This document shows, one piece after another, positions 9,777-58,420 of a stretch of DNA of 64,000 nt. The stretch is from Syntrophaceae bacterium UBA2188 (lineage in GTDB: Bacteria > Desulfobacterota > BSN033 > UBA1163). Both the position numbers and the translations under genes were made by a program. The stretch spans positions 24,528 to 88,527 of the forward strand of contig DCVM01000181.1 in NCBI GenBank assembly GCA_002327985.1, in the 5' to 3' direction. Numbering within the stretch: the first letter of the stretch is position 1; the number at the start of each line of letters is the position of its first letter. Under the pieces are notes generated by a model that saw only the letters and a list, made by a program, of their open reading frames with translations, was not told where the DNA came from and searched no databases.

Positions 9777-11354
9777 TTACTTCACATCACTCCATTTCCC
9801 ATATTTTTCTCTTAAAATGCGATGGAGAATTTTTCCAGTGGGGGTCATGGGCATCTCTTCGTCCTTGATGAAATCCACTGTTTTGGGGATTTTGTATCCT
9901 GCAATCTTTCCCCTGCAATGGTCAATAAGCTCCTTTTCGGTCGCTGTCTTTCCCTGATGAAGGGTCACAATCGCCTTTACAGACTCCCCCCATTTTTCAT
10001 GCGGAATCCCGATCACAGCCACATATTTTACCGCAGGATGGGATCCCAAAAGATTCTCTACTTCTGATGGGAAGATATTCTCGCCACCGCTAATGATCAT
10101 ATTCGCTTTTCTATCCACCAAGACATAGTATCCATCTGGATCCCGGCAAGCCATATCCCCTGCTGAGAACCACTCTCCTTGAAAAACGGACTTCGTTTTT
10201 TCCGGATCCTTCCAATATTCCTTAAACACATGGGGAGTCCGCGAATAAAGTTCTCCCACCTCCCCATCCGGTACCTCTTTACCATGTTCATCTAAAATCT
10301 TGATTCGATCGGATCCCCAGATCTCTCTACCAATGGAGCCCAACTTCTTAAATTGTTCTTCGGGTCTGAGGAGGGTTACAAGCCCTGCCTCGGTTGAACC
10401 GTAGGCTTCCCAGAGCTCTGCATTTTTGAAATAATCCATGATGGCCATTTTAGTATCTTTCCGGGCGGGTGCAGAAGAGATCAGGAGTTGTCGCATCGAA
10501 CTTACATCATATTTCTTTTTAATTTCATCGGGTTGAGAAAGAATCATGATGTAATGGGTGGGGACAAGGGAAGTAAAGGTAATCTTCTCCTTTTGAATCG
10601 TTTTCAATAGATCCTCTGGATCGAAGCTGACCATGTTGTAGACAAAAACCCTTGCACTACAATAGGTATAGGTAAATGAATAATAGATTGAATTGATGTG
10701 GCACATTGGCATGACGAGCATGACGCAGTCATCCGGCCGGATGCCCGTATTCATTGCATTGAGAACATATTGGGCAAGATTGTTTTCATGAGTCCGGACA
10801 ACCCCTTTGGGCTTGCCGGTAGTCCCTGAAGTATACATAAGATTCCAGACATCATCTCCATCGACCATTACATCGGGTTCATCGGGTGAGGCTTCTGCAA
10901 TAATTTTTTCATAAGACTGGTAGCCCTCAGGGGTCGGATCATCTCCCCAATAAACATAATTTTCCGGCGGGATGGAAGATAGTTTATTACGAAAGGAATT
11001 AACCGTTGGAACAAAATCTTTTGAGACTAAAAAAGCTTTACATTCTGCATGGTTCACAACATATTCCATTTCAGGAGCTGCAAGACGAAACATAATTGGG
11101 ACGGTGATAAGTCCAGCTTTTGCAGAGGCCGCATAAATCTCCATCCATTCGATACAATTGTATGCCAGGATAGCAAACCGATCTCCTTTTTTTAGTCCCA
11201 TTTTTGTAAAGGCATTGGCTAACCGGCAGCTCCTGTCGTTCCATTCCTTGAAGGTCATCTTCCTGAACTTATCCCCTGCCCCTGGTTTATCAGGATATTG
11301 CGTTGCCATCATCTTAAGAACTGTTCCCGCTGTAATCCATTTACTAATCGTCAT
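9777..11354 (-). CDS. AMP-dependent acyl-CoA synthetase / fatty-acid--CoA ligase
   Basis: 525 aa; AMP-binding signature MYTSGTTGKPKGV; A10 Lys region PKTVDFIKDEEMPMTPTGKI. Confidence 0.75.
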   Translation of the reverse strand: MTISKWITAGTVLKMMATQYPDKPGAGDKFRKMTFKEWNDRSCRLANAFTKMGLKKGDRFAILAYNCIEWMEIYAASAKAGLITVPIMFRLAAPEMEYVVNHAECKAFLVSKDFVPTVNSFRNKLSSIPPENYVYWGDDPTPEGYQSYEKIIAEASPDEPDVMVDGDDVWNLMYTSGTTGKPKGVVRTHENNLAQYVLNAMNTGIRPDDCVMLVMPMCHINSIYYSFTYTYCSARVFVYNMVSFDPEDLLKTIQKEKITFTSLVPTHYIMILSQPDEIKKKYDVSSMRQLLISSAPARKDTKMAIMDYFKNAELWEAYGSTEAGLVTLLRPEEQFKKLGSIGREIWGSDRIKILDEHGKEVPDGEVGELYSRTPHVFKEYWKDPEKTKSVFQGEWFSAGDMACRDPDGYYVLVDRKANMIISGGENIFPSEVENLLGSHPAVKYVAVIGIPHEKWGESVKAIVTLHQGKTATEKELIDHCRGKIAGYKIPKTVDFIKDEEMPMTPTGKILHRILREKYGKWSDVK

Positions 11355-11490
11355 AAATCCACCCCTTTCTTAATCCCAATTCTTCTTCCTAAAGAAAAGA
11401 AAACAGGGATTAATAATTTCTTTTTGTGATTTTTTTTACATTCATTATCATTACGAAATAATTTTGTCAAGGAGAAGTTTTAAAAAAGAC

Positions 11491-11519
11491 TTGTTATTCT
11501 ATGGCTTTTATAGTATATA
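11491..11519 (+). promoter_or_regulatory. candidate sigma70-type promoter for the gcvH-hdr-flx cluster
   Basis: TTGTTA -17 nt- TATATA, about 37 nt upstream of the gcvH-like ATG; RBS AAAGGAGG at 11538-11545. Confidence 0.35.
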
Positions 11520-11555
11520 GGTAGGCATTTAAAAAAGAAAGGAGGATTGGAAAAA

Positions 11556-11975
11556 ATGGAAATCGAAGGATATAACTTTCCAGACGATTTATATTATCAC
11601 AAAGAGCATTTTTGGGCTAAAGTTTCGGGCAATATTGTGATTATGGGCACAACTGATTTCGCCCAGAAATTAGCAGGTCAAATCGTATATATTGAATTAC
11701 CATCTCCAGGTAAAAAGCTTGAACAGGGGAAACCTTGTGGCTCCTTGGAATCCGGTAAATGGGTAGGTAGGGTTTATGCCCCTGTCTCTGGAAAAGTGGA
11801 ATCCACCAACCAAGAACTTGAAGAGACTCCTGAATTAATTAATGAAAACCCTTATGAAAAAGGTTGGATATGTAAAATTAGTCCTTCCAATCTTCAAGAA
11901 GAGCTTAAGAATTTGATGCAGGGAGAAAGTCTGGCGGAATTTATAAAGTCTGAAATCGTTCGAGTGAAAAAGTAA
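11556..11975 (+). CDS. glycine-cleavage H-protein-like lipoyl carrier protein (LbpA-like)
   Basis: 139 aa from the ATG (ORF-track start 11547 is TTG placed 1 nt after the RBS); H-protein motif SLESGKWVGRVYAPVSGKV aligns to ESVKAAS-DVYAPVSG with the lipoyl-Lys conserved. Confidence 0.75.
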   Translation: MEIEGYNFPDDLYYHKEHFWAKVSGNIVIMGTTDFAQKLAGQIVYIELPSPGKKLEQGKPCGSLESGKWVGRVYAPVSGKVESTNQELEETPELINENPYEKGWICKISPSNLQEELKNLMQGESLAEFIKSEIVRVKK

Positions 11976-12044: not shown

Positions 12045-12542
12045 ATGATTGATTCTAAGACATTTGATCCCAATTTTAAATTCCTCATCGCCTCGGAACC
12101 AGGCGGAGAGAATATCAACAAATGTTTTTCTTGCGGCACCTGTACGGCAGGATGCCCTGTGAGGGAAGTCACCGACCGTTATAACCCAAGAAGAATTATC
12201 CGAATGGCGATCCTGGGAATGAAAAAAGAAGTCCTTTCAAGTGACTTTATCTGGTTATGTTCCTCTTGCTATACCTGTTACGAAAGATGTCCTCAAAATG
12301 TCAAAATTCCTGAACTGATGAACGCCATTAAAAATATTGCGGTGAAAGAAGGATATCTTCCTTCATCCATCAAGAGTCAATTGGATCTCCTCGCCTCCTT
12401 TGGCCGCCTCTTAGAGGTGACGGACTTTGAAAATGACAAAAGGAAGGATTCAGGTCTTCCACTCTTTCAAAGGCAGACCGAAGATGTGAAGAAGATCTTA
12501 ATCAACCTGGGTCTCTATCGTGAAGAACAGGACAGAGGATAG
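12045..12542 (+). CDS. hdrC: heterodisulfide reductase subunit C-like (2x[4Fe-4S])
   Basis: CFSCGTCTAGCPV and CSSCYTCYERCPQ ferredoxin motifs; 165 aa; followed by hdrB. Confidence 0.8.
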   Translation: MIDSKTFDPNFKFLIASEPGGENINKCFSCGTCTAGCPVREVTDRYNPRRIIRMAILGMKKEVLSSDFIWLCSSCYTCYERCPQNVKIPELMNAIKNIAVKEGYLPSSIKSQLDLLASFGRLLEVTDFENDKRKDSGLPLFQRQTEDVKKILINLGLYREEQDRG

Positions 12543-13440
12543 CCCACAACACGTTGAATATACTCTTTTCCTTGGATGTACGGTTCCTGTCAGAGCCTTG
12601 AATTATGAGATATCGGCGAGGAGGGTAGCTGAAAAACTCGGCCTTCAACTCTCTGATGATCCAGATTTCAGTTGCTGCGGTTACCCCATCAAATCCGTCC
12701 ACCGCTATGGCTATCTTCTTATGGCAGCCCGCAATCTGGCCCTTGCTGAAGAAAAGGGGCTTCCACTCTGTACCCTTTGCAGCGCTTGTTGTGGTTCTCT
12801 CACTGAAGCCAACCATGAGATCAAGGAGAATGAAAAATTACGGAAACAGATCAACGAAGACCTCTTCGAGTGGGTGGGGTTGCACTATGAGGGAGGAGTT
12901 CGAGTCACTCATTTTATTCGAGTCCTAGATCAAGAAGTTGGGAAAAAAAGAATTTCAGAGCAGATCCGAACTGATCTCTCTCCCCTTCGTGTAGCTCCCC
13001 ATTATGGTTGTCACTATACCAAACCCTCCACCATTTACAACAAGACAGAAGATCCAGAGGATCCAAAAAGTTTGGATGAACTGATTAAAGTGACAGGAGC
13101 CCAATCCGTTCAATATGAGGATAAACTCCAGTGTTGCGGGGGGGGGGTGTTGGCTATTGACGAGCAGGTCGCTCTCGCCATGGCTCATCGAAAATTGGAT
13201 CATCTCAAATCCCAGCAGGCAGATGCCATGATCCTCATCTGTCCTTTCTGCAATGTCATGTATGAAGGGAATCAACGTAAAATTGAAAAGTCCTATCAAA
13301 CAGAATATAAAATGCCCATTCTCTATTATCCTCAACTTTTGGGCTTAGCCTTAGGATTTGAACCCAATGATCTGGGGATGAAAATGAACCGCGTGAAAGC
13401 GAATGAGTTGGTGAAGAAGATTAACAGGAGTGCGGATTGA
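12520..13440 (+). CDS. hdrB: heterodisulfide reductase subunit B-like (two CCG domains)
   Basis: CCGYPIK ... CTLCSACCGS and HYGCHYT ... CCGGGV ... CPFCN; 306 aa; GTG start overlapping hdrC. Confidence 0.8.
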   Translation: MKNRTEDSPQHVEYTLFLGCTVPVRALNYEISARRVAEKLGLQLSDDPDFSCCGYPIKSVHRYGYLLMAARNLALAEEKGLPLCTLCSACCGSLTEANHEIKENEKLRKQINEDLFEWVGLHYEGGVRVTHFIRVLDQEVGKKRISEQIRTDLSPLRVAPHYGCHYTKPSTIYNKTEDPEDPKSLDELIKVTGAQSVQYEDKLQCCGGGVLAIDEQVALAMAHRKLDHLKSQQADAMILICPFCNVMYEGNQRKIEKSYQTEYKMPILYYPQLLGLALGFEPNDLGMKMNRVKANELVKKINRSAD

Positions 13441-13441
13441 G

Positions 13442-16400
13442 ATGAGCCAACCACCCAAGGACCCAATTGGAGCGGTATTGGTTGTTGGTGCAGGAATTGG
13501 AGGCATCCAGGCTTCCTTAGACCTGGCGGAGTCGGGGTTTAAAGTCTATCTTTTGGAAAAGAATTTGAGTATTGGCGGGACCATGGCGCAGTTAGATAAG
13601 ACCTTCCCGACCAATGACTGCTCCATGTGTATTATGTCTCCTAAATTGGTGGATGCGGGAAGACACAGGAATATTCAGATCCTCACCAATGCCAAGGTAG
13701 AAAAAGTCGACGGGGTTCCTGGTGATTTTAAAGTTCAAATTCATAAGAAGGCTCGCTATGTCACGATTGAAGACTGCAAGGCATGCGGAGATTGTGTCAA
13801 GGTCTGCCCTATTAAAATTCCCAATGATTACGAACAAGGACTGGTCACCCGCGCCGCCATTTATCAGCTGTTTGCTCAGGCCATGCCGAGTGCTTACGGG
13901 ATTGATAAGAGAGGAATCCCTCCTTGCCGCGCCACCTGCCCTATTCATGTCAATGCTCAAGGGTATATCGCTCTCATTTCAGTCGGTAAGTTTGAAGAGG
14001 CCTTGGCACTGATCAGACAAAAAAATCCATTCCCGGGCATCACGGGCCGGATATGTACCCACCCCTGTGAATCGGTCTGCCGAAGAAAAGACGTCGGTAC
14101 GACTCGAAACCGAGTGGAACGGCCCGTGGCCATTGATGCCCTGAAACGATTCGTCTCGGACTTTGAGAAAGAAGATAAAACTGACCTGACTGTTCCTGAG
14201 GAAAATGGAAAGAAGGTTGCCATCGTGGGTGCAGGTCCTGCAGGCTTGCTGGCTGCCTACGACCTAAGAAAAATGGGCTATGGCGTCACCCTCTTTGAGG
14301 CCCTGCCTGTGCCTGGAGGAATGCTCGCGGTTGGAATTCCAGAATATCGTCTGCCACGGACTGTCCTCAATGAGGAGATCGATTACCTTCTTCGAATGGG
14401 GGTTGAGCTCAAGCTCAATACTCCGATCGGCCCCCATTTTCCCCTTCAAGACCTCAAAGCCAAAGGATATGAGGCCATCTTTATTGCAACGGGTGCCCAC
14501 CAAAGCAGGAAACTTGGACTCGAGGGAGAAGAGTCAAAAGGCATCCTCCATGCTGTCGACTTCCTAAGAAGGGTTGCACTGAGAGAACCGGTCGAGATAG
14601 GTGAAAAAGTAGTGGTGGTGGGAGGCGGGAATGCAGCCATCGATGCCGGCCGAACAGCCTTCCGCCTTAAGGCAAAAGAAGTCACCATCGCCTATCGCCG
14701 AACCCGAGCCGAGATGCCAGCTCAAGAAGAAGAAATCGAAGAGGCAGAGCATGAAGGAATCAAAATCGAATACCTGACTGCCCCAACCCGATTGTTGATC
14801 GAGGGGGGTCAAATAATTGGAATGGAATGCATCCGAATGGCATTGGGTGAAATCGATGAATCGGGTCGGCCTCGGCCAGTTCCCATTTCTGGATCAGAAT
14901 TTAAAATTGAAGCGGATACGATTATCCCAGCCATTAGTCAATCCTCCGACCTGTCTTTCCTCAATCAAAAAGATATTATGAAGACGACTCGGTGGGGGGG
15001 AATTGAAGTAGATCCCCTGACCCTTGAGACCAGCGTGAAAGGTATTTTCGCTGGTGGTGATGTGGTCACCGGTCCCCAGACTTATATCGATGCCATGGGG
15101 GCTGGAAGAAAGGCAGCCATTTCCATTGACCGATATCTGAGAGGAGCAGACCTGAGAGTAGGTCGAGAGGAAGAAGGTCCACAGAAAGACTATATCAAGA
15201 TTGATATCGACGGTGTGGAGTATCGAGAAAGAGCCTCGATGACCGCCATCCCGTTGAATGAAAGAAGAAATTTTAATGAGGTGAACCTCGGGCTGAGAGA
15301 AGAGGATGTGATTCGGGAGGCAGAGCGCTGTCTTCAATGTGGAGGTTGTTCAGAGTGTTTAGAGTGTATCAAAGCCTGTGAGGCAAAGGCCATCGACCAT
15401 GGGATGAAGGATGAACAGTTGGAAATTGAAGTCGGCTCAATCATCCTCTCCCCGGGATTTGATGAGTTCGAACCTTCTTTGAAAAGCGAATACGGCTATG
15501 GACGATTTCCCAACGTCGTTTCAAGCATTGAATTCGAGCGATTCCTTTCAGCCTCTGGACCCTTCAAAGGCCAGGTTCTGAGACCTTCGGATCAGAAACA
15601 CCCCAAAAGTGTGGCATGGATTCAATGTGTGGGATCGAGAGACCCCCATATTGGAAAAGGTTACTGTTCTTCGGTCTGCTGTATGTACGCAACCAAAGAG
15701 GCGGTCATTGCTAAAGAGCATGCCTCGGAAATTGAACCGACGATCTTCTTCATGGATATGAGGGCATATGGAAAGGATTTTGATAAGTACATTGAGAGAG
15801 CAAAAAAGGAATATGGTGTTCGCTATATCCGATCCCGAGTCTCTCATGTCAAAGAGGACCCAAAAACGAATAATCTGACCATCCATTATGAAACCGAAGA
15901 GGGAGAGATGGTTTCTGAGGAGTTTGACCTCGTTGTCCTCTCCGTCGGCCTTGAGCCAACAAGAAGTCATCAGGAGATCGCAAATATTTTTGATATTGAT
16001 CTTAATTCATACGGGTTTGCCGAAACCTCTATCTTCTCCCCTCTTCAAACGTCGAAACCCGGGATCTTTGTTAGCGGCGTCTTTTCCGGCCCGAAAGACG
16101 TTCCTGAAACGGTCGCTCAGGCGAGTGCAGTGGCTGCAGAAGCCTCCTCCCTTCTCGCTAAATCAAAGGGAACATTGGTCGTCGAGAAAGAATATGCTCC
16201 AGAAAAAAATGTGAACTATCAAGGTCCCCGCATTGGTGCTTTCATCTGTCACTGTGGGATCAATATTGGAGGGGTGGTCAATGTCCCAGAGGTCGTCGAA
16301 TATGCACGAACACTCCCTAATGTGGTCCATGTCGAAGGCAACCTCTACACTTGTTCTCAGGACACTCAGGATCAGATGAAAAAGATGATCGAAGAACATC

Positions 16401-17941
16401 AATTGAACCGGGTCGTGGTCGCTTCGTGCACACCTCGAACCCACGAACCCCTGTTCCAGGATACCATCCGTGAGGCAGGGCTTAACCGTTATCTTTTTGA
16501 TATGGCCAATATTCGCGATCAATGTTCATGGGTTCACATGACCCAACCCAAAGAGGCAACAGAAAAAGCAAAGGATCTGGTCAGAATGGCCATCGCCAAA
16601 GCAGCCCTCCTGGACCCTCTTCCCACCCAGACGGTTCAGATGAATCAAAAGGCCCTGGTCATTGGCGGAGGATTGGCGGGAATGACCGCCGCTAAGAAGA
16701 TTGCCCAAGCTGGCTATGAGGTCTATCTGGTTGAAAAAAGATCTGAATTAGGTGGAAAAGCGAGAACGATATACTACACCCTCGATGGCAATAATGTTCA
16801 ATCCCATTTAGAACATCTGATACGAGACGTAGAGAAAAATCCACAAATTCATCTCATGACAAAAACGACCATCGAAAAGATCGATGGATTTGTTGGAAAT
16901 TTCAAAACCAAAGTCCGGAATGGAAACGAAGTGAAAGAACTCGACCACGGAGTCATCATTGTCGCCACTGGGGGAGAGGAATATCGCCCCAAAGAATTCC
17001 TCTATGGCCAAGATTCCCACGTGATCACTCAGAAGGAGTTGGAGGAATGGATTGTCTTCCATCCTAATAAATTAAAGGATCTAAAAAACGTAGCCATGAT
17101 TCAATGTATCGGATCGAGAAATGATGACAGACCTTACTGTAGTCGAATCTGCTGCTCCGAGGCGATCAAAAATGCCTTAAAACTAAAATCCATGAACCCG
17201 AAGCTGAATATTTATATTCTCTATCGTGACATCCGAACCTATGGGTTCAAAGAAGACTATTATGAGAAGGCTCGAGAGGCCGGGATTCTCTTCATCCGTT
17301 ACGAACCAGAGAAGGAACCCCGGCTGGAAGCAGGAGCAGAAGGCCTGGGTGTCGTCGTGCACGAACCCATCCTCCACGATGATCTGCTGATCCAGACCGA
17401 TCTTCTCGTGCTGAGTCCAGGAATCGTCCCCCCCGTCGAAAATGAAACCCTTTCAAAGATGTTGAAAGTTCCCCTCAATCAGGACGGCTTCTTCCTGGAA
17501 GCTCATATGAAACTCAGGCCGGTGGACTTTGCAACAGAGGGAATCTTCCTGGCCGGGCTCGCTCACAGTCCGAAATCGATTGAAGAGAGCATCTCGCAAG
17601 CCAATGCGGCCGTTGCCCGAGCTCTCACTTATCTTTCCAAAACAGAACTTGAGACGATCGGCATCACCTCCGAGGTAGATGAGAGAAAATGTATTGGCTG
17701 TGGTCTCTGCGAAAGTGTCTGCCCTTATCAAGCTATTGAAATCCTGACGAAAAGGACCATCGTAGGAGAAAAACAGGTGGCGCAAATTAACAAAGCTCTT
17801 TGCAAGGGATGCGGCGCTTGCACCGCTTCTTGCCGCTCGGGGTCTATCGATTTGAAAGGATTCACCAACGCAGAGGTGGTTGCCCAGATCACCGAACTGG
17901 CCATAGGATCAATCGGAGAGTCGATGACAGGACAACCATGA
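13442..17941 (+). CDS. hdrL: HdrL-type giant HdrA-like flavoprotein: tandem HdrA modules with an inserted GltD/NfnB-like FAD/NAD(P) domain
   Basis: 1499 aa from ATG 13442 (RBS AACAGGAG). Module 1: GAGIGGIQASLDLAESGFKVYLLEK, DCSMCIM, WIQCVGSRD, CCMYATKEA. Insert: CRATCPIHVNAQGYI, ICTHPCESVCRR, VAIVGAGPAGLLAAYDL. Module 2: LVIGGGLAGMTAAKKIAQAG, MIQCIGSRND, ICCSEAIKNA. C-terminal 2x[4Fe-4S]. Confidence 0.8.
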   Translation: MSQPPKDPIGAVLVVGAGIGGIQASLDLAESGFKVYLLEKNLSIGGTMAQLDKTFPTNDCSMCIMSPKLVDAGRHRNIQILTNAKVEKVDGVPGDFKVQIHKKARYVTIEDCKACGDCVKVCPIKIPNDYEQGLVTRAAIYQLFAQAMPSAYGIDKRGIPPCRATCPIHVNAQGYIALISVGKFEEALALIRQKNPFPGITGRICTHPCESVCRRKDVGTTRNRVERPVAIDALKRFVSDFEKEDKTDLTVPEENGKKVAIVGAGPAGLLAAYDLRKMGYGVTLFEALPVPGGMLAVGIPEYRLPRTVLNEEIDYLLRMGVELKLNTPIGPHFPLQDLKAKGYEAIFIATGAHQSRKLGLEGEESKGILHAVDFLRRVALREPVEIGEKVVVVGGGNAAIDAGRTAFRLKAKEVTIAYRRTRAEMPAQEEEIEEAEHEGIKIEYLTAPTRLLIEGGQIIGMECIRMALGEIDESGRPRPVPISGSEFKIEADTIIPAISQSSDLSFLNQKDIMKTTRWGGIEVDPLTLETSVKGIFAGGDVVTGPQTYIDAMGAGRKAAISIDRYLRGADLRVGREEEGPQKDYIKIDIDGVEYRERASMTAIPLNERRNFNEVNLGLREEDVIREAERCLQCGGCSECLECIKACEAKAIDHGMKDEQLEIEVGSIILSPGFDEFEPSLKSEYGYGRFPNVVSSIEFERFLSASGPFKGQVLRPSDQKHPKSVAWIQCVGSRDPHIGKGYCSSVCCMYATKEAVIAKEHASEIEPTIFFMDMRAYGKDFDKYIERAKKEYGVRYIRSRVSHVKEDPKTNNLTIHYETEEGEMVSEEFDLVVLSVGLEPTRSHQEIANIFDIDLNSYGFAETSIFSPLQTSKPGIFVSGVFSGPKDVPETVAQASAVAAEASSLLAKSKGTLVVEKEYAPEKNVNYQGPRIGAFICHCGINIGGVVNVPEVVEYARTLPNVVHVEGNLYTCSQDTQDQMKKMIEEHQLNRVVVASCTPRTHEPLFQDTIREAGLNRYLFDMANIRDQCSWVHMTQPKEATEKAKDLVRMAIAKAALLDPLPTQTVQMNQKALVIGGGLAGMTAAKKIAQAGYEVYLVEKRSELGGKARTIYYTLDGNNVQSHLEHLIRDVEKNPQIHLMTKTTIEKIDGFVGNFKTKVRNGNEVKELDHGVIIVATGGEEYRPKEFLYGQDSHVITQKELEEWIVFHPNKLKDLKNVAMIQCIGSRNDDRPYCSRICCSEAIKNALKLKSMNPKLNIYILYRDIRTYGFKEDYYEKAREAGILFIRYEPEKEPRLEAGAEGLGVVVHEPILHDDLLIQTDLLVLSPGIVPPVENETLSKMLKVPLNQDGFFLEAHMKLRPVDFATEGIFLAGLAHSPKSIEESISQANAAVARALTYLSKTELETIGITSEVDERKCIGCGLCESVCPYQAIEILTKRTIVGEKQVAQINKALCKGCGACTASCRSGSIDLKGFTNAEVVAQITELAIGSIGESMTGQP

Positions 17942-18426
17942 CCGATCAATGGGAACCCAAGATATTAGCCTTCCTTTGTAACTGGTGTTCTTATGCCGGG
18001 GCAGACCTCGCGGGAACAGCCCGGATTCAGTATCCACCGAACATTCGGGTCATCCGAGTGCCCTGCTCAGGGAGGATCAATCCTCTCTTTATCCTCAAGG
18101 CCCTTCAGAGCGGGATCGACGGAGTGCTGGTTTCTGGCTGTCATCCAGGAGACTGTCATTATCTCAGCGGAAACTATATAGGAAGGAGAAAGTCAGCAAC
18201 CCTGAAACGCTTTCTCGAATACCTCGGCTTCGAGGAGGGCCGGGTTCAGTTCTCCTGGGTCTCTGCCGCAGAAGGAGGTAAGTTTTCCCAGGTCGTGGGA
18301 GAGGTCGTGCAGGATATTAAAAAATTGGGACCCGCCCAGAGATTCGTCAAAAAAGAGGCTCAAGGGTCCCAGGGGTCAAGGGTTCAAGTGAACAGTATAA
18401 AAAAGCTGGGACCCTCGAATCCTTGA
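17938..18426 (+). CDS. mvhD: MvhD/FlxD-like [2Fe-2S] electron-transfer protein
   Basis: ATGA overlap with the hdrL stop; MTDQWEPKILAFLCNWCSYAGADLAG ... RVPCSGR ... GCHPGDCHY classical MvhD motifs. ORF-track start 17800 is rejected because it overlaps hdrL by 141 nt. Confidence 0.8.
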   Translation: MTDQWEPKILAFLCNWCSYAGADLAGTARIQYPPNIRVIRVPCSGRINPLFILKALQSGIDGVLVSGCHPGDCHYLSGNYIGRRKSATLKRFLEYLGFEEGRVQFSWVSAAEGGKFSQVVGEVVQDIKKLGPAQRFVKKEAQGSQGSRVQVNSIKKLGPSNP

Positions 18427-18465
18427 ACCCGTTAGATAATCTTGGAAAGAACATTCGTGTGGGTA

Positions 18466-19428
18466 ATGGAAGAGAGATCGAAGGCAATTCAAGACAGAAT
18501 TAGAGAAAAAGCCAGAGAGCTTCTATTAAACAAAACGGTGGATCTCATCATCGGTTTTGGTGAAGGTTCCTTTCCCCTTCGAACCACACCCAGATTCATT
18601 CGAGATCCTGAAAAAACGGACCGTTTGATCTGGAACTCTTTTTGCGAAAACAACCTGGCCACTTACCTTCATAAATTCAACAAGTTTAAGGTGGGGATCG
18701 TGGTGAAAGGATGTGATGCCCGTTCTGTCATTGCACTTTCTCTCGAAAAAAGGTTTAAACCTGATCAACTGTTTTTAATGGGAGTCCCTTGCCAGAGGAT
18801 GGTGGATCGAAGAAAGGTGAAGCGGGCGGTAAAAGGAGAAATCCTTCGGGCTTTTGAGCAAGGAGACCAGATCGTTGTGGAGGGAGAAGAGTTTAAAACC
18901 ATTTTGAAAAGGGATGACTTTTTTTATCCCTCCTGCCAGGTTTGCATTCATCGAAATCCTATTCAGGCGGACGTGTTAGTCGGAGATCCTGTAGAAGAAT
19001 CTCCTCTTATAGAAATACATCCCGAGATCCAAGAATTTGCAAAGAAATCCGCGGAAGAACGGTGGAAGTATTTTGAGAAAGAGTCCAGCCGTTGTATCCG
19101 TTGCTACGCTTGTCGAGAAGCCTGTCCCATGTGCTATTGCGCGGAATGTTTTGTGGACAGTTCTAACCCAAAGTGGATTGAAAAGAGCTTATCTCCTTCA
19201 GACCTTGAGTTCTATCACATCGTAAGGGCCTATCATCAAACAGGGAGGTGCACGGGTTGCGGTGCCTGTGAAAGAGCCTGTCCTATGGAGATTCGTCTCA
19301 CTTACCTCACGCAGAAATTGAATAGGGACGTAAAAGAACTTTTCAACTATGAAACAGGAATCGATACCAAGACGCTCCCTCCCCTGTCGACTTATGACAT
19401 GGAGGATAAACAGGATTTCATCAAATGA
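18466..19428 (+). CDS. flxC: FlxC-like Fe-S protein (sulfhydrogenase/F420-hydrogenase beta-like, 2x[4Fe-4S])
   Basis: CIRCYACREACPMCYC and CTGCGACERACPM. Start is uncertain: TTG at 18442 or ATG at 18466. Confidence 0.6.
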   Translation: MEERSKAIQDRIREKARELLLNKTVDLIIGFGEGSFPLRTTPRFIRDPEKTDRLIWNSFCENNLATYLHKFNKFKVGIVVKGCDARSVIALSLEKRFKPDQLFLMGVPCQRMVDRRKVKRAVKGEILRAFEQGDQIVVEGEEFKTILKRDDFFYPSCQVCIHRNPIQADVLVGDPVEESPLIEIHPEIQEFAKKSAEERWKYFEKESSRCIRCYACREACPMCYCAECFVDSSNPKWIEKSLSPSDLEFYHIVRAYHQTGRCTGCGACERACPMEIRLTYLTQKLNRDVKELFNYETGIDTKTLPPLSTYDMEDKQDFIK

Positions 19429-20486
19429 CATTGAAGCTGGACAAAAAAGATTTGAAGGCTTTTTTGGAAACCCTGATGGATGAATACGATCTCTTTGCGC
19501 CCGTGCAATTGGCCGAGGGAGTTTCCATATATAAAAAGATTGACCGCCCCGATGATGTGGACCTCTCAACCTCTAACCCTCAAAAACCTGCGAAGGAGGT
19601 ATTTTTCCCCCAATCTGAGACCATGTTTCGGTATGAAAAAGCCGGGAAACAACAACAGATGACTTCCACAGAAGGGGTAGAAAAAAAGAGGGTGATCCTG
19701 GGCGCCAGACCCTGCGATATCCAGGCGGTCTCCATCTTGGATGACGTCTTTTTAGGGAAAGAGTACAAGGATGTTTATTATGGGAATAAAAGAAATGGGA
19801 CAACCCTCATCGGCTTAGCCTGTAATCATCCCCTCTCCACTTGCTTCTGTCCCTCTGCGGGGGGAGGTCCTTTCCTTCGAAAGGGTTCGGACATTTTCCT
19901 CATCGATTTGGGCGAAACATTTATCGTTGAGCTTCTGACTGAAAAAGGAATGACTTTTCAAAAGAACAAATTCTTTAAAGAAGCGAATACAAAAGAGATC
20001 AGTTTGGCCCAAGAGATTGAGGAAAAAGCATCCAAAAAAGCTGATGCTTCCGTTCCGATTGAGGGAATTGATAGAAGATCGGACCTAATGATGGAGAGCC
20101 CATTCTGGGACCGGATGCATGAGAAATGTATAGGCTGTGGAGTGTGCACCTTTCTTTGCCCCACATGCCATTGTTTTGATATTGTCGATGAGGCCTTGAC
20201 GAACAAGGGGCAACGGGTGAGAAACTGGGATTCCTGCCTATTCCCTTTATATTCCCAGGAGACTTCTGGCCATAATCCACGACCCACAGGCCGTGAACGA
20301 ACTCGACAAAGATTAATGCACAAGTTTAATTATTTCCCGAAAAACTTTGGGCGGGTCGCTTGTGTGGGTTGCGGTCGATGTATCCTTTACTGCCCGGTTA
20401 ATTTTGATATCCGCCAGGCAATCAACTTGACGTCTGCTAAAGGCATAAGAAAAGTGAAGGATCAGGTGGACTTAACGAGGCGATGA
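19425..20486 (+). CDS. flxB: FlxB-like Fe-S protein (HydB/AsrA-like, 2x[4Fe-4S])
   Basis: CIGCGVCTFLCPTCHCFD and CVGCGRCILYCPV; 353 aa; ATGA overlaps with both neighbours. Confidence 0.6.
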   Translation: MTLKLDKKDLKAFLETLMDEYDLFAPVQLAEGVSIYKKIDRPDDVDLSTSNPQKPAKEVFFPQSETMFRYEKAGKQQQMTSTEGVEKKRVILGARPCDIQAVSILDDVFLGKEYKDVYYGNKRNGTTLIGLACNHPLSTCFCPSAGGGPFLRKGSDIFLIDLGETFIVELLTEKGMTFQKNKFFKEANTKEISLAQEIEEKASKKADASVPIEGIDRRSDLMMESPFWDRMHEKCIGCGVCTFLCPTCHCFDIVDEALTNKGQRVRNWDSCLFPLYSQETSGHNPRPTGRERTRQRLMHKFNYFPKNFGRVACVGCGRCILYCPVNFDIRQAINLTSAKGIRKVKDQVDLTRR

Positions 20487-21322
20487 AGAATCCATATTTC
20501 CCCATCCCCATGAAGGTTAAACAGGCCTATGTCGAAACCGTCGACCGAATGCTTCGGACGATTGAGTTGAGTTTCCTGAATGAAGAAGACGAAAGGGCTT
20601 TCCATTTCACCCCCGGTCAATTCTGCGAACTCTCTATCCTGGGGAAAGGCGAGGCATCTTTTGGGATTGCCTCCTCTCCGACAGAAAACAACTCTTTGAA
20701 ATTTACAATTAATAAGGCAGGGGTGGTAACCACCGCCCTTCATCACATCGAGGAAGGGACAGAGGTCGGTGTGCGAGGCCCCCTGGGGAACGGATATCCC
20801 ATCCCCCTTTTTGAAGGAAAAAATGTATTAGTGATTGGAGGAGGGTTTGCGTTCACCACTTTGCGATCCTTGATCACCTATTTCCTACACCCACAAAATC
20901 GATCCAAAGTGAATGAGATCACTGTCATTTATGGAGCACGGATGCCGGGCCTCCTCCTCTACAAGGCAGAATTGTTAGAGTGGGAGAAGAGAAGCGACAT
21001 CAAATTGGTGGTGACGGTTGATTGGGGAGATAAAGACTGGAAGGGGAAGGTTGGACTGGTCCCAAATGTATTGGAAGAGGTGGCACCCTCTTCAGAAAAT
21101 AGTTATGCCGTCATCTGTGGCCCTCCGATTATGATTAAATTCACCTTCCCAAAATTGATGGCCCTTCGATTCCCCAATGAACGCATTTATACCTCTCTGG
21201 AGAAAAGGATGAAATGTGGTATTGGGAAATGTGGCCGATGTAACATTGGTCACCTCTACGTATGTAAGGATGGCCCTGTCTTCAGTTACGCCGAGTTGGA
21301 AAAATTACCAAAGGACTATTGA
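20483..21322 (+). CDS. flxA: FlxA-like NAD(P)H:FAD oxidoreductase (PyrK/AsrB/HydG-like) with C-terminal [2Fe-2S]
   Basis: FNR-like FAD/NAD fold (FHFTPGQF, GPLGNGYP, VLVIGGGFAFTTLRSL); C-terminal CGIGKCGRCNIG. Confidence 0.65.
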   Translation: MKNPYFPIPMKVKQAYVETVDRMLRTIELSFLNEEDERAFHFTPGQFCELSILGKGEASFGIASSPTENNSLKFTINKAGVVTTALHHIEEGTEVGVRGPLGNGYPIPLFEGKNVLVIGGGFAFTTLRSLITYFLHPQNRSKVNEITVIYGARMPGLLLYKAELLEWEKRSDIKLVVTVDWGDKDWKGKVGLVPNVLEEVAPSSENSYAVICGPPIMIKFTFPKLMALRFPNERIYTSLEKRMKCGIGKCGRCNIGHLYVCKDGPVFSYAELEKLPKDY

Positions 21323-21445: not shown

Positions 21446-24025
21446 ATGGATTATACTAAAGATCTGATCCAAATTGTAGGTGAAAAAAATGTTAAGACCG
21501 ATGAAATCGAACGACTCTGTTACTCCAGGGATCTCTCGGTCCACGAGGCCGTTCCGGATGTCATTGTCTTCGCCAATACCACAGAAGAAGTTTCAAAAAT
21601 TATGTCTTTGGCCCATCATGGAAAAATTCCTGTGACCCCAAGAGGATCGGGGACAAGTGCTGTAGGGGGTGCTTTAGCCGCCAAAGGAGGCATTCTGCTT
21701 GATTTAAGCAGGATGAACCGTATTCTCGAGATAGACAAAGAGAATGGATATGCGGTGGTTGAACCTGGCGTCATATGCAACCAGCTTAATGCAGCCATTG
21801 CCCCAACCCATTTTTTTCCTCCCGATCCTGGAAGTGCGAATCTCGCCTCACTGGGAGGAATGGTCTCAACCAATGCCAGCGGAAATCGGGCTCTGAAGTA
21901 TGGGACAACGAAGAATTATGTCTTGGGGCTGGAAGTGGTACTGGCCGATGCTCGAATCATTAACACAGGGTCGGTCTTGGGCAAGACTTCCTCCGGATAC
22001 GACCTGACCCAGCTCTTCACCCAGGCCGAGGGGACGCTGGGGATTATCACAAAGGTCATTCTAAGAATTCTCCCCGTTCCCGAATATGTTGCTTTTGCAG
22101 AGGCCCGATTTCCCTCTACCCTGGATGCCGGAAAGGCCGTTCGGGAGATCTTGACCTCGGGGATCGCCCTCTCTTCCTGTGAGATTTTGGATAAAGTGAC
22201 GATCGATGTGGTAAATAAAGCGATGGGACTCAACATCCCCGATCAAGTGGGATGTCTCCTCTTCATTGAAATCGATGGGAATAAAAAAGCTGTTCAGGAA
22301 AACATAGAAAAAATTAATAAAATTTGTAAAACCAATAATGGGATTGAAAATAGATGGGAGGATGACCCTGCGAAACGTCTTAAGATGTGGGCCGCCCGTC
22401 AAGGGATTGTTGCCTCTTTGTCGAAAGTCAAGAGAGGATCAAGGATGCAATCCATTATGGATGACCCGGGAATACCTATCACCAAAATTCCGGAAGCCAT
22501 TATGGAAATCAAGAAAATCTCGGAGAAACATCATCTCCCCATCAATACTTTTGGCCATATCGGTGATGGGAATATTCATCCCATCATCATCTCGGACCCC
22601 AGAAACAAGGAGCAATGGAATACCATCAAAGAAGTAGCCAAAGACTTAATTGACCTCACGATCCGGCTCCGGGGAACGCTCACCGCAGAGCATGGAACGG
22701 GAATGGCCAAATCGCCTTATATTAAGAAGGAGCTCGGGGAAACCCTCAAAGTCATGAAGGAGATCAAAAAAGCCCTTGACCCCAACAATATACTCAATCC
22801 GGGAAAGATGGGATTCGATGACTCCATTCAAGACATTTATGAGAATTTTGCCTTTTTACCCCTTGTTCAAAGGACTAACGAGATTCAATCCTTCGGGGAG
22901 GCACTGGATAATGAGATCATGGCCTGTATCATGTGCGGATTCTGTCGAGCCGGGTGTCCCACTTATGGGGAAACTTTCCTCGAATCCATCAATGCGCGCG
23001 GAAGAGTAATATTGGCCTATCACCTCCTCACCGGGAGACTGAAACCCTCGAAAGAACTGGCGGAAAGATTTTATAAGTGCACCACATGCTTGAACTGCAA
23101 TGCCGTCTGCCCCGCAGGTGTCCAGGTTTCCGATATTGTCCAGGCTGCCCGCCTACGGCTGGTGGAGGCAGGATACCTTCCCCCCATCCACGGAACGCTC
23201 ATGCGATCCATTGAAGAAAAAGGAAATCCCTTCGGGGAAGCCACAGAAAAAAGGCAGGATATCTATCCCACAGAGTATAAGCCTAAAGAAAAAGCAACCA
23301 CCCTTCTTTTTTTCGGGTGTGTGGCTTCCTATCAAGATATCAATGTCATTCCAAGCACCTTGAAGATCATGGATAAGGCGAAGATTGACTATACGACGTT
23401 GGGGACGGAGGAGCAATGCTGTGGATATATCTCTTATCTGGTCGGGGATGAAAAAGAATTTGAGAGATGTATCAAGAATAATAAAAATCATTTTGAACGG
23501 ATGGGTTTCAAAGAAATGGTTACCACCTGCGCGGGGTGCTATCGAACCTTTAAAGATCTTTACCCAAAACATCATGGGTTTCTCAGCATTCAAGTTTATC
23601 ATACGGTAGAATATTTGGAAAAACTCATCACGGACGGCAAGCTCATTTTCAAGAATGGGGCTAAAATAAAAGTGGCTTATCACGATCCCTGTGATATCGG
23701 GCGGCATATGAATATCTATGATCCACCCCGAAATGTCATCAGGGCGATTCCGTCGTTAGAATTGATTGAATTTCCTCACAACAGGAACCTTGCCAAATGC
23801 TGTGGCGGGGGGGGGGGATTGAAGGCCTTCGATACTGACATGAGTTTAGAAATATCTTACAAGCGCGTTCAGCAGGTCTCCGGTATAGGAGTTGACCTAA
23901 TTGTTTCCGCCTGCCCCTCCTGTAAATCTAACTTACAGGTGGCTGCAGCCAGACTTCGAAAAGAGAAAAAAGGCCGCATCAAGGTGATGGACATTACGGA
24001 ATTAGTGGCGGAGGCCCTCGCCTAA
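21446..24025 (+). CDS. fused FAD-linked 2-hydroxyacid (D-lactate/glycolate) dehydrogenase with Fe-S/CCG oxidoreductase domain (GlcD+GlcF/GlpC/HdrD-like)
   Basis: 859 aa. N-terminal FAD_binding_4 and FAD-oxidase C domain (GlcD-like: RGSGTSAVGGALA, HIGDGNIHP). C-terminal CIMCGFCRAGCPTY, CTTCLNCNAVCPAG, then two CCG domains (CCGYISY; CCGGGGG ... ACPSC). Confidence 0.75.
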   Translation: MDYTKDLIQIVGEKNVKTDEIERLCYSRDLSVHEAVPDVIVFANTTEEVSKIMSLAHHGKIPVTPRGSGTSAVGGALAAKGGILLDLSRMNRILEIDKENGYAVVEPGVICNQLNAAIAPTHFFPPDPGSANLASLGGMVSTNASGNRALKYGTTKNYVLGLEVVLADARIINTGSVLGKTSSGYDLTQLFTQAEGTLGIITKVILRILPVPEYVAFAEARFPSTLDAGKAVREILTSGIALSSCEILDKVTIDVVNKAMGLNIPDQVGCLLFIEIDGNKKAVQENIEKINKICKTNNGIENRWEDDPAKRLKMWAARQGIVASLSKVKRGSRMQSIMDDPGIPITKIPEAIMEIKKISEKHHLPINTFGHIGDGNIHPIIISDPRNKEQWNTIKEVAKDLIDLTIRLRGTLTAEHGTGMAKSPYIKKELGETLKVMKEIKKALDPNNILNPGKMGFDDSIQDIYENFAFLPLVQRTNEIQSFGEALDNEIMACIMCGFCRAGCPTYGETFLESINARGRVILAYHLLTGRLKPSKELAERFYKCTTCLNCNAVCPAGVQVSDIVQAARLRLVEAGYLPPIHGTLMRSIEEKGNPFGEATEKRQDIYPTEYKPKEKATTLLFFGCVASYQDINVIPSTLKIMDKAKIDYTTLGTEEQCCGYISYLVGDEKEFERCIKNNKNHFERMGFKEMVTTCAGCYRTFKDLYPKHHGFLSIQVYHTVEYLEKLITDGKLIFKNGAKIKVAYHDPCDIGRHMNIYDPPRNVIRAIPSLELIEFPHNRNLAKCCGGGGGLKAFDTDMSLEISYKRVQQVSGIGVDLIVSACPSCKSNLQVAAARLRKEKKGRIKVMDITELVAEALA

Positions 24026-24116: not shown

Positions 24117-24647
24117 TTATTTAGTGAGGTAATCTTTCCATATTTCCTCGAACCGATCAAACATCTCTTTTATCTCATATAAAAAAGCCATATCCATGAG
24201 ATAATCTTCGAGCGAAGTGGCGACAGAACTCTCAATAAATCCTTTGCATTGAATTTTGGAGGGAGCCGGAGTGATTTCGCAACCAATCATCCAAGCTCGC
24301 CCTTTCCGAATAGGTAGATCGATATGGGGGGTTCCTCCCTCGTCAACATATCGCACATGCATACAACGCAAGCATTTGTTCTTCCTTACCTTAATCGCCT
24401 GGTCGATCTCTTCATCCACAGACTGACGGATAACCCTTTTGATCAGGGCATTTCTCTCTTTCGGTGCCATCCATCGGACTAATGAAATGATTTCCCTTTT
24501 GGCCTCTTGAATGGATCGAATGATCTCATCCATCACCATAGAAGGCGAATGGGTCTGTTCTAATTGAAGGACCCTGACCTCTTGGAGGATCAGGATTTTG
24601 ATGGTCAATCTGATGGCTTCCTTTAATTTTTTATCTTCTTCTTGCAT
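24117..24647 (-). CDS. hypothetical protein with a 4-Cys cluster
   Basis: 176 aa ORF; CLRC ... C ... C arrangement; no family recognised. Confidence 0.35.
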   Translation of the reverse strand: MQEEDKKLKEAIRLTIKILILQEVRVLQLEQTHSPSMVMDEIIRSIQEAKREIISLVRWMAPKERNALIKRVIRQSVDEEIDQAIKVRKNKCLRCMHVRYVDEGGTPHIDLPIRKGRAWMIGCEITPAPSKIQCKGFIESSVATSLEDYLMDMAFLYEIKEMFDRFEEIWKDYLTK

Positions 24648-24759
24648 AGACCTCTTTTATCAAAAAGATAGATTTTTAGCAAGTGGAATATCGGCGTTTC
24701 GGATAACCCCTTTGCGGGTTTTGATTGAAAATAAAGTGGAAAGATAATAAAATGTTTTA

Positions 24760-25647
24760 ATGGTGCAGTTCCCAACAACGGTCTTGGAGGGGAAAAAACT
24801 GCCGAGGCTGATTTTTTCTGCTCAGCCTCCCGTCTTTCGAGGTCATCGGGAAATCTATCCCCTCATGAAAAAAGTTTATGAAATGGGGACCTGGTGTCTT
24901 GATCTTCCCTCGCCAAAACATCTCGAATCTTTTAGGGAGTTAAAAAATTTAACTCTTGACGAAACCCTGACAGGCCTCTGCCATTTAGAGGTGGAAACAG
25001 GAGCCTCTTTCTTAGGGAAACCCCTTCATCAATTTGAAACGAAAGTCGTCTCAACCATTAAAAAAAACCTGAGCCTTCCCCAATCGATTCGAAATCTGCC
25101 ACCCATTCCGATTGGGTCTGAAGTGTTCACTCAGAAAGAGATCGACCGGATTGGTTTTGATCCCCAACGTTTTGAAAAAGCCCTCTCTTTTTTTCATCCC
25201 GGGGAATCCCCTTTCGTCTTGGTTGGAGGAAGATATGGAGATTGGTTATTGGCTTTAGGGAGAATTGATCTTCTCAAACAGATGATGGCCAAGGTGAGAG
25301 AGAAAGGATTCACCCCTGTCTATTCGGGTCAGTGGGCAACCTTCTGTCTTCCAAAGGCTAAATCCCTGGATGTGGTGGCCTATGCTATCCCCATCAACAG
25401 GAAGTGGAGCTTTTTCAATCTGGATCAGGCCTGCGTTCTGATTAAGAAATTTGATAGACCCGTGATCAGTCTGAATCCATTGGCGGATGGAACACTGTTA
25501 AAGAATTCAGAGGAGGCTTTTTCGTTTCTCTTTAAAGATTTGAAGATCACTCTGGCGATTGCAGAGATTCATTCGGAGCAGGAGGTTGAGATCCTATTGA
25601 GCGCGGTGGCGAAAATACCTTCTCTCATCCCCCCCCGAAAAACATGA
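24760..25647 (+). CDS. hypothetical protein
   Basis: 295 aa ORF (GTG start), coding-like composition, no recognisable motif. Confidence 0.35.
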   Translation: MVQFPTTVLEGKKLPRLIFSAQPPVFRGHREIYPLMKKVYEMGTWCLDLPSPKHLESFRELKNLTLDETLTGLCHLEVETGASFLGKPLHQFETKVVSTIKKNLSLPQSIRNLPPIPIGSEVFTQKEIDRIGFDPQRFEKALSFFHPGESPFVLVGGRYGDWLLALGRIDLLKQMMAKVREKGFTPVYSGQWATFCLPKAKSLDVVAYAIPINRKWSFFNLDQACVLIKKFDRPVISLNPLADGTLLKNSEEAFSFLFKDLKITLAIAEIHSEQEVEILLSAVAKIPSLIPPRKT

Positions 25648-58300: not shown

Positions 58301-58420
58301 CTGACACCGACCGTTGGCGATCCCAATACCATGATCCCTGAATCAAAGGCTTTCATGGCCAACGTCAGTAAACTGACTAAACAACCAGCCCAACCAGCCA
58401 AAAAAACAACAAAAAGTTAA
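55376..58420 (+). CDS. fdnG: formate dehydrogenase catalytic subunit, selenocysteine-containing, Tat-exported
   Basis: Tat signal RRTFLKVSGATAAG. The two track ORFs 55376-55954 and 56003-58420 are in the same frame and are joined by TGA 55952-55954. The junction reads EHQARI-U-HSATVAALAESFGRGAMTN, the canonical Sec site of molybdopterin formate dehydrogenases; 1014 aa total. Confidence 0.9.

Follow-up and report, generated by a model that had tools for sequence, protein, structure and literature searches.

A predicted lipoyl carrier of the KW type, related to LbpA, in an Hdr/Flx gene cluster of Syntrophaceae bacterium UBA2188

Background

The substrate of soluble bifurcating complexes of the Hdr type has been a long-standing gap in bacteria which do not have the coenzyme M-coenzyme B heterodisulfide (CoM-S-S-CoB). 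This heterodisulfide in methanogens and DsrC in sulfate reducers, for which DsrC is a proposal, fill comparable roles, and nothing is established for syntrophs. For the Hdr/Flx and HdrABC/HdrL complexes, DsrC has been put forward as a partner, in the sense of a "bacterial heterodisulfide" (PMC5947623, PMC2702500). In Culexarchaeia a GcvH gene lies inside an Ehe hydrogenase-HdrBC cluster of an organism without CoM and CoB, and its product was suggested to be a disulfide holder for HdrB (Kohtz et al. 2022, PMC9723716). LbpA has a conserved lysine and two conserved cysteines absent from GcvH, of which one lies close to each terminus, the C-terminal one often in a glycine-rich tail; its gene stands beside the sHdr genes, and sHdr sulfur oxidation cannot do without it (Cao et al. 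2018, PMC6067878). Here we analyzed a stretch of 64,000 nucleotides from Syntrophaceae bacterium UBA2188 (assembly GCA_002327985.1, contig DCVM01000181.1), called the window, in which the gene of a small GcvH-like protein, called the carrier, stands at the head of an HdrCB-HdrL-Flx cluster.

The best-supported reading of the compared sequences is that the carrier is no glycine-cleavage H protein and belongs to a separate paralogous branch, the KW branch, together with LbpA. It probably acts, with a likelihood which we put at about 0.55, as a lipoyl-protein carrier of dithiol and disulfide for catalytic sites of the CCG type, in the manner of DsrC.

The carrier and its separation from canonical GcvH

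The gene of the carrier is given below.

11556-11975, forward strand: LbpA-like lipoyl carrier of the KW type, 139 amino acids (aa), putative lipoyl lysine K68 in ESGK-WVGR (translation of the open reading frame (ORF), Pfam, alignment and structure model)

The original prediction for this locus, made by reading the sequence, had described a 139-aa protein with ESGK in the place of the H-protein motif ESVK. This is confirmed by the translation, by a Pfam GCV_H match over residues 12-132 (E 3.8e-42) and by end-to-end alignment with solved H-proteins, in which ESGK (K68) falls on the ESVK lipoylation motif of the T. thermophilus (1onl) and pea (1dxm) proteins.

The search for relatives covered 1.84 billion cluster representatives and gave 11,278 relatives. 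Signatures were counted in the best 150 of these plus the locus sequences, with 71 sequences of the KW type and 66 of the canonical type, called KA. A fixed motif difference was found between them, as the orthologs of the carrier have HFW and ESGK-W-V-G-R, versus HEW and ESVK-A-(A/V/T)-S-(D/E) in E. coli, Thermus and pea. Tryptophan directly follows the lipoyl lysine in 71/71 KW and 0/66 KA sequences, and the lysine itself is present in 71/71 KW sequences. The third position after the lysine is G in 69/71 KW versus S in 48/66 KA sequences, and at the fourth, 56/71 KW sequences have R, K or P versus D or E in 61/66 KA. The glutamate of HEW is kept by 51/66 KA sequences; it is not one of the residues commonly seen there in KW.

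These positions can be compared with E. coli, where Glu-12, Glu-14, Ser-67 and Asp-68 are reported to hold the aminomethyl-lipoyl arm and to let it go (PMC7733448). The carrier keeps Glu-12 (as E17) and His-13, and has F19 for Glu-14, G71 for Ser-67 and R72 for Asp-68. The KW signature lies on the last three positions, and therefore arm-holding residues are replaced in the carrier.

Nearly all KW proteins form one clade in a neighbour-joining tree, built without bootstrap, apart from E. coli, Thermus, pea and the gcvP-linked copies. With motif-masked profiles, from the training of which its own clade was left out, the carrier scores 168.9 bits with the KW profile versus 146.6 with the canonical one, a margin of 22 bits. 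A phylogeny against true GcvH had been proposed together with the original prediction, and in both of these comparisons the carrier falls outside the canonical group. The closest canonical-type relatives come from unrelated phyla (Nezhaarchaeales, Dehalococcoidia, Herpetosiphon). Two loci of Caldisericia type (L078 and L079) have a KA copy with gcvPA/gcvPB and a KW copy on the other strand, and therefore the two types are coexisting paralogs. No gcvP (gcvPA/gcvPB) was found in the 72 loci with orthologs of the carrier or in 44 KW loci from metagenomes, both sets being described below.

The carrier may instead be the ordinary GcvH of the organism, which works in glycine cleavage or synthesis or as a hub of lipoyl relay, with its place beside hdr genes as inherited synteny. 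The AlphaFold model of the carrier (predicted local distance difference test 97.4) is near-identical in fold to the solved H-proteins, with a template modelling score of 0.85-0.90 and a root-mean-square deviation of about 1 Å at 35-39% sequence identity, and the lysine at the tip of the hairpin and the equivalents of Glu-12 and His-13 are kept. Searches of the PDB by sequence and by fold with the carrier gave only canonical H-proteins and GcvH-L, with no LbpA structure among the matches. The carrier is also above the NCBIfam cutoffs of the GcvH equivalog TIGR00527 (124.8 vs 115.85) and the subfamily model NF002270 (146.8 vs 117), and a lipoyl-relay GcvH is known in Firmicutes (PMC10332631). 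However, other KW proteins such as P0124 and P0159 exceed both cutoffs as well, and thus the NCBIfam GcvH models do not discriminate KW from canonical proteins. An NCBIfam scan of diverse KW proteins gave no dedicated model, with "GcvH_rel_desulf" and "not_gcvH" far under their cutoffs. The KW clade away from the gcvP-linked copies, the replaced arm-holding residues, the two coexisting paralogs, the lack of gcvP in the ortholog loci and the window and a gene linkage which outlasts inversions and reshuffling across differently labelled lineages (next section) make an ordinary GcvH unlikely here. From the cutoffs and the fold, the carrier may have a residual role in glycine cleavage or lipoyl relay.

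Public records name the KW proteins "glycine cleavage system protein GcvH", and several of them exceed the TIGR00527 and NF002270 cutoffs. The H-protein calls in pathway reconstructions from metagenome-assembled genomes (MAGs) may thus include the KW paralog, which distorts reconstructions of glycine cleavage and of the reductive glycine pathway.

Gene neighbourhood of the carrier

The cluster in the window has the following further genes.

9777-11354, reverse strand: FadD-like AMP-forming acyl-CoA synthetase (Pfam AMP-binding 8e-87 and AMP-binding_C)
12045-12542, forward strand: HdrC-like subunit (Pfam Fer4_8; TIGR03290 7e-34, under the curated cutoff)
12520-13440, forward strand: HdrB-like catalytic subunit (Pfam CCG twice; TIGR03288 5e-85)
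13430-17941, forward strand: HdrL, 1503 aa (Pfam, NCBIfam, sequence and cysteine map)
17935-18426, forward strand: MvhD/FlxD-like subunit (Pfam FlpD 2e-53)
18442-19428, forward strand: FlxC, in the set FlxC-FlxB-FlxA of iron-sulfur (FeS) and FAD/NAD(P)H subunits (Pfam/NCBIfam)
19425-20486, forward strand: FlxB, of the same set (Pfam/NCBIfam)
20483-21322, forward strand: FlxA, of the same set (Pfam/NCBIfam)
21446-24025, forward strand: GlcD-FeS-CCG fusion, 859 aa, a D-2-hydroxyacid (D-lactate-type) dehydrogenase with an HdrD-like module (Pfam)

The carrier gene is the first of a same-strand run, with a gap of 70 bp to the HdrC gene, and the synthetase is transcribed divergently from it. Its place at the head of an HdrCB-HdrL-Flx cluster, the acyl-CoA synthetase and fused 2-hydroxyacid dehydrogenase on the flanks and the lack of glycine-cleavage P, T and L genes nearby had all been predicted, and all of these hold, as both flanking genes are present and no gcvP, gcvT or lpd was found among the larger ORFs of the window (Pfam; NCBIfam for the cluster). 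The subunit set of an Flx-Hdr/HdrL cluster is complete by Pfam and NCBIfam, with FlxA-D, HdrB and HdrC, and with HdrL in the place of HdrA. No dsr gene was found among the annotated ORFs of the window, in which small ORFs were not specifically searched for DsrC. The Rfam scan of the window gave no family, glycine riboswitch included, at the gathering score.

The HdrC-like protein has eight cysteines which form two CxxCxxCxxxC (4Fe-4S) motifs, and both Cx(n)CCx(n)CxxC (CCG) motifs of the HdrB-like protein are complete (residues 20-90 and 164-244). In HdrL an NfnB/GltD-like NAD(P)H domain splits an HdrA unit, after which come another unit of the HdrA kind and a ferredoxin domain; this is the architecture that was defined for HdrL (PMC2702500). 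For the MvhD/FlxD-like gene the start at 17800 of the ORF lister is less likely than the ATG at 17935, from which the translation begins MTDQWEPKILAF... The FlxC-FlxB-FlxA region matches the Pfam Fer4 families, Fer4_22, NAD_binding_1 and DHODB_Fe-S_bind, together with AsrA/AsrB-like and HydB/HydG-like NCBIfam models. In the GlcD fusion Pfam finds FAD_binding_4, FAD-oxidase_C, Fer4_8 and CCG, the last twice; there are two 4Fe-4S motifs, neither CCG motif is broken, and its closest solved relatives are mouse D-lactate dehydrogenase (7e-86) and then A. woodii LctD (1e-74). The closest solved relative of the synthetase is M. tuberculosis FadD13 (1e-80).

Ortholog loci were taken from one scan of species-representative genomes, which gave 80 loci, 72 of them with an ortholog of the carrier at 56-91% identity. 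The context was counted in those 41 ortholog loci that have a flank of 5 kb or more on either side. As many of the loci belong to Desulfobacterota lineages related to one another, these counts lack independence. Closest to the window are genomes of uncultured Syntrophaceae/Thermodesulfobacteriota MAGs, such as UBA2208 with the carrier 91% and the synthetase 94% identical. ESGKW, K68 included, is invariant in all aligned full-length copies of the ortholog. In 39/41 loci a synthetase ortholog is encoded no more than 10 kb from the carrier gene. An HdrB ortholog is present in 25 loci, the GlcD-CCG fusion in 20 and one or the other of these two in 35, with a divergent HdrCB in three more. HdrL/HdrA is present in 24/41 loci and Flx genes in 12/41. 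The fusion adjoins the carrier gene in 33 of the 72 loci, an LplA-like gene adjoins it only in L044 and L049, and a NarI-like membrane protein with an HdrD-like protein is encoded directly beside it in 19 related loci.

The order of the genes varies. The window type is synthetase(-)|GcvH-HdrCB-HdrL-Flx-Dld; in the Syntrophorhabdus type, Flx-HdrL-HdrBC is inverted relative to GcvH-HdrD-NarI-synthetase; a clade at 60-63% identity has MetV-MetF-HdrA-HdrA/MvhD-HdrC-HdrB-GcvH-Dld-(HGD-D)-(BcrAD ATPase)-synthetase; Desulfarculaceae have HdrA-MvhD-HdrC-HdrB-GcvH-Dld; and Syntrophobacterales have synthetase-GcvH-LplA-Dld. The cultured Desulfocarbo indianensis has HdrA-HdrA/MvhD-HdrC-HdrB-GcvH-GlcD fusion. 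The linkage is kept despite this reshuffling across loci labelled Syntrophaceae, Syntrophorhabdus, Syntrophobacterales and Desulfarculaceae, which argues for selection over inheritance, and the adjacency, proposed earlier as a check, is thus conserved across several Desulfobacterota lineages. What is conserved beside the carrier is the synthetase together with proteins that have CCG domains, namely HdrCB and the GlcD-FeS-CCG fusion, and HdrL and Flx are the variable parts. The original prediction had named the Flx/HdrL system as the partner; it is present in the window, but by the counts above it is kept less often than HdrB and the fusion taken together.

The synthetase is the most constant neighbour, and enzymes of the ANL type can acylate carrier thiols. 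It could therefore be asked whether the carrier is an acyl carrier, with the synthetase loading an acyl or 2-hydroxyacyl group on the dihydrolipoyl thiol and the GlcD and Hdr proteins acting on the tethered substrate, and the genes of the HGD-D family described below would fit with this. However, the synthetase resembles a generic CoA ligase of the FadD type, the KW proteins outside the clade of the window carrier have no synthetase neighbour, and we know of no precedent for such a carrier. We give this explanation only a slight chance.

Several further observations were made at these loci. A gene of the HGD-D family (2-hydroxyacyl-CoA dehydratase/benzoyl-CoA reductase type) is present in 9 loci, 8 of them also with a gene of the BcrAD-type activator; in the clades at 57-63% identity (L053-L065 and L161) the HGD-D gene and a BcrAD/BadFG activator ATPase lie between the GlcD fusion and the synthetase. 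The module of D. indianensis (L161) also has a thiolase. In the NCBI record of this locus the 3.2 kb that follow the carrier gene (L161:10429-13661) are without a called gene, and in a Logan assembly with the same sequence an 860-aa GlcD-FeS-CCG fusion is called there; a gap in the annotation or a case of recoding may explain the discrepancy. In a 4.8-Mb genome, a LarA (lactate racemase) gene (L163:10496-11776, reverse strand) stands beside HdrA-HdrA/MvhD-HdrC-HdrB-GcvH and next to corrinoid methyltransferase genes. An apparent fusion ORF of 1048 aa in L121 was discarded, being a shadow ORF of high GC content. In the window itself the GlcD fusion is followed by three ORFs without Pfam match (24117-26197; 176, 295 and 190 aa), which stand in the same order beside the GlcD fusion in L020 and L030.

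The wider KW family and its domain fusions

The KW sub-clade most distant from the carrier served as seed for a metagenome scan, which gave 80 more loci, of which the 44 of at least 8 kb were counted; the context counts are lower bounds, as they come from insensitive annotation with a BLAST panel. A CCG-domain protein is encoded within 5 kb of the carrier gene in 22/44 loci, an LplA-like ligase or LipS-like radical SAM gene is present in 16/44, and a GlcD-type dehydrogenase in 10/44. The operon GcvH(KW)-GlcD-HdrD-GcvH(KW)-LplA/LipS is recurrent (L130, L134, L144 and L147; also L125, L102, L106 and L107), with two different carrier paralogs around a split hydroxyacid dehydrogenase/HdrD pair. 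A second recurrent operon is NarI-HdrD-UbiA-GcvH-LplA, which in L084 lies immediately 3′ of HdrCB-HdrA genes, and further ones are MvhD-HdrB-GcvH, GcvH-HdrC-HdrB-HdrA-MvhD and GcvH-fumarase-HdrA/MvhD-HdrC-HdrB. In L136:974-6564, which is of the last kind, a KW carrier is followed by the alpha and beta genes of a class I fumarase and then by HdrA/MvhD-HdrC-HdrB, an order which hints at a carrier use like that of thiol:fumarate reductase.

Domain fusions were also found. The top match of the representative search, P0121 (1391 aa, from an Anaerolineae MAG), joins three GcvH-like domains with GlcD, FeS and two CCG domains, and P0184 joins receiver, GcvH-like and HdrC-like domains. Their fusion partners are the two partner types of the window cluster, namely GlcD-FeS-CCG and HdrC. 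In P0265 a GcvH-like domain is joined with GAF and histidine kinase domains. The lipoyl lysine is lost in the fused domains of P0121 and P0184, and because of this these two fusions show physical association and not lipoyl chemistry.

The lost lysine, the joining with a GAF histidine kinase and the lack of lipoylation genes in the window would agree with the carrier being a structural or regulatory subunit of Hdr-type complexes, which acts by its fold without lipoate chemistry. The lysine is, however, present in every KW sequence counted and ESGKW is invariant in the aligned orthologs, and ligase or LipS genes adjoin both close orthologs (L044, L049) and distant KW genes (the 16/44 above). A purely structural subunit is thus quite improbable.

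Proposed role and energetics

In the proposed role, K68 would be lipoylated and the dithiolane/dithiol arm would be the substrate of CCG sites with non-cubane 4Fe-4S clusters. The sites served would be HdrB of the HdrCB-HdrL-FlxDCBA complex and the HdrD-like domain of the GlcD fusion, and in the relatives the carrier would also serve the membrane NarI/HdrD pair and modules of the MetFV-HdrABC type. It would thus be a redox hub that joins a D-2-hydroxyacid dehydrogenase to a flavin-based bifurcating or confurcating complex for NAD(P)H and ferredoxin. In the confurcation option the reaction would be D-lactate + reduced ferredoxin + 2 NAD(P)+ -> pyruvate + 2 NAD(P)H, and the reverse bifurcation would be equally possible. 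We infer from the gene context and the domain fusions that lipoate would be the equivalent of the heterodisulfide; lipoylation in the window organism and direct docking of the carrier on HdrB or HdrD are predicted on the same grounds, and the way in which electrons would flow, the hydroxyacid used and the role of the synthetase named here are also putative.

Several points weigh against this role, besides the near-identical fold, the passed GcvH cutoffs, the relatedness of many loci and the lost lysine of the fusions. Free lipoamide has an E0' near -290 mV and the lactate/pyruvate couple one of -190 mV, so that lipoamide would be a poor high-potential acceptor for NAD(P)H bifurcation and lies about 100 mV uphill from lactate. 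The low potential would need to be shifted by the protein environment, by a cluster-bound intermediate or by a covalently carried substrate. The CCG domains of GlcD/GlpC/YdiJ-type enzymes can pass electrons to quinone without a thiol partner. No LplA, LipA or LipS was found among the larger ORFs of the window in the Pfam and NCBIfam scans, and the support for the carrier role is comparative and sequence-based throughout.

It is also conceivable, although we hold this tentatively and with less than even odds, that the KW lipoyl proteins are a general class of protein-bound "heterodisulfide" for CCG enzymes in non-methanogenic anaerobes, both bacterial and archaeal, which serves HdrABC, HdrL-Flx, MetFV-Hdr, NarI-HdrD and GlcD-HdrD, with LbpA-sHdr as one specialised branch. 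If true, the KW family would be the missing HdrB substrate in syntrophs and in others without CoM/CoB and DsrC. The lipoyl carrier encoded in these operons is a concrete and testable candidate for the HdrB partner in non-sulfate-reducing anaerobes. A cultured host of the module exists in D. indianensis, and purified proteins could serve for testing.

Relation to LbpA

LbpA is modified only by a dedicated ligase. KW proteins with the two cysteines of LbpA occur in the sequence sets, for example MANVRGCNLPDDLYY...DGFGGC, with members of their clusters from Burkholderiales and Hydrogenophilales. Their genes stand in the contexts rhodanese-DsrE-carrier-radical SAM-LplA and LplA-DsrE-carrier-HdrB-HdrA. 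Bona fide LbpA contexts thus lie inside the KW clade, and therefore LbpA is a sub-branch of KW. The carrier of the window has no cysteine in its N-terminal 60 residues or its C-terminal tail, and its C61 and C106 vary in the ortholog clade (F, A and other residues). No dedicated sLpl(AB) and LipS1/S2 maturation genes are in the window; DsrE, TusA and rhodanese were not found there either, and in place of an sHdrC1B1AHC2B2 set there is a single HdrC-HdrB pair. By clade and motif the predicted carrier is a relative of LbpA, but by cysteines and context it is not LbpA proper. The parallel drawn with LbpA in the original prediction therefore stands for the KW clade and motif and fails for the two cysteines and the sHdr/DsrE/TusA/rhodanese context.

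The clade and motif in common with bona fide LbpA, and the need for LbpA in sHdr sulfur oxidation, raise the question whether the carrier is a sulfur-substrate carrier of the LbpA kind, which offers sulfane sulfur to HdrB for oxidation or reduction. The missing and variable cysteines speak against this, as does a cluster without the sulfur-transfer genes just named, in which the carrier is partnered with a dehydrogenase for hydroxyacids, with an acyl-CoA synthetase and with NAD(P)H modules; we consider it very unlikely.

Upstream region and other features of the window

The region between the divergent synthetase and carrier genes has the following feature.

11423-11520, forward strand: conserved upstream block with TTGTGA...ACAT, TTGTCA and TTGTTA-17-TATATA (sequence reading and comparison of 8 related genomes)

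TTGTTA lies at 11491-11496 and TATATA at 11514-11519 with a spacer of 17 nucleotides, and AGGAGG is at 11540-11545. In 8 related species there is no change in the element or in the roughly 100 bp that surround it, and the half of the spacer near the synthetase has diverged. A generic scan for promoters and terminators does not list the site, and its promoter-like matches in the region number 19 versus 20.1 expected from shuffles. The promoter-like TTGTTA-17-TATATA reported earlier is thus present and conserved in the 8 relatives, but it is not picked up by the generic scan; conservation is better evidence of function for this candidate element than the consensus match. More invariant blocks were seen in the 8 related genomes at 11423-11490 (forward strand), TTGTGATTTTTTTTACAT.CATTATCA and TTTGTCAAGGAGAAG, which could be a candidate regulator site common to the divergent synthetase and carrier genes.

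Beyond the cluster the window has housekeeping genes, with SecDF, ribosomal proteins, ArgC and MutS upstream and RluB-like, ScpB and MiaA downstream. At 55376-58420 (forward strand) two same-frame ORFs form one gene split by an in-frame TGA at 55952-55954, in the context HQARI-U-HSATV. Molybdopterin domains and the twin-arginine signal MKITRRTFLKVSGATAAG are encoded in it, with no match to an Rfam selenocysteine insertion sequence, and its predicted product looks like a selenocysteine-containing periplasmic subunit of the formate-dehydrogenase type.

Comparison with known systems

In the open-access literature no GcvH/LbpA-type protein tied to HdrL/Flx or GlcD-HdrD was found, the Culexarchaeia suggestion being the only one of its kind, and no description of the KW signature was found there. 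The link had been called not well described. This is right for HdrL/Flx and GlcD-HdrD, for which it is new in open-access papers; LbpA with sHdr and the Culexarchaeia gene are precedents.

One of the nearest systems is LbpA-sHdr (PMC6067878; Tanabe et al. 2023, PMC10332631), which shares with the carrier the lipoate-binding GcvH fold, a place beside HdrB/HdrC-type genes, the KW clade with K-W-x-G, and LplA-like ligase and LipS-like radical SAM genes that accompany the relatives. It differs in that the window carrier comes from an anaerobic, syntroph-like lineage instead of a sulfur oxidiser and has HdrL/Flx and a GlcD-CCG dehydrogenase as partners. The Culexarchaeia cluster likewise holds a GcvH gene within an HdrB-containing cluster, but it is archaeal, linked with a hydrogenase and a suggestion only.

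By subunits the cluster matches FlxABCD-HdrABC/HdrL of sulfate reducers, with the same FlxA-D, HdrB and HdrC, an HdrL that includes an NAD(P)H domain, and the same logic of a small protein thiol/disulfide as the HdrB substrate. Unlike it, the operon of the window encodes the putative lipoyl carrier instead of DsrC, and the module is joined to a GlcD-CCG fusion. In membrane systems such as HdrDE and DsrMK, which are quinol:disulfide oxidoreductases, the pairing of DsrMK with DsrC is mirrored by the NarI-like and HdrD-like pair beside the carrier in the 19 related loci; this pair is not in the window, and the substrate would be the lipoyl arm.

On the side of the hydroxyacid, GlcD-FeS-CCG enzymes of the Dld-II/YdiJ type probably reduce quinone and are not known to work with a carrier protein. 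The GlcD domain of the window is close to LctD of LctBCD of Acetobacterium woodii and to D-lactate dehydrogenases, and like LctBCD the window system would couple the hydroxyacid couple at -190 mV to NAD(P)H and ferredoxin by confurcation, but the link would be made with CCG clusters and a lipoyl protein and not with Etf.

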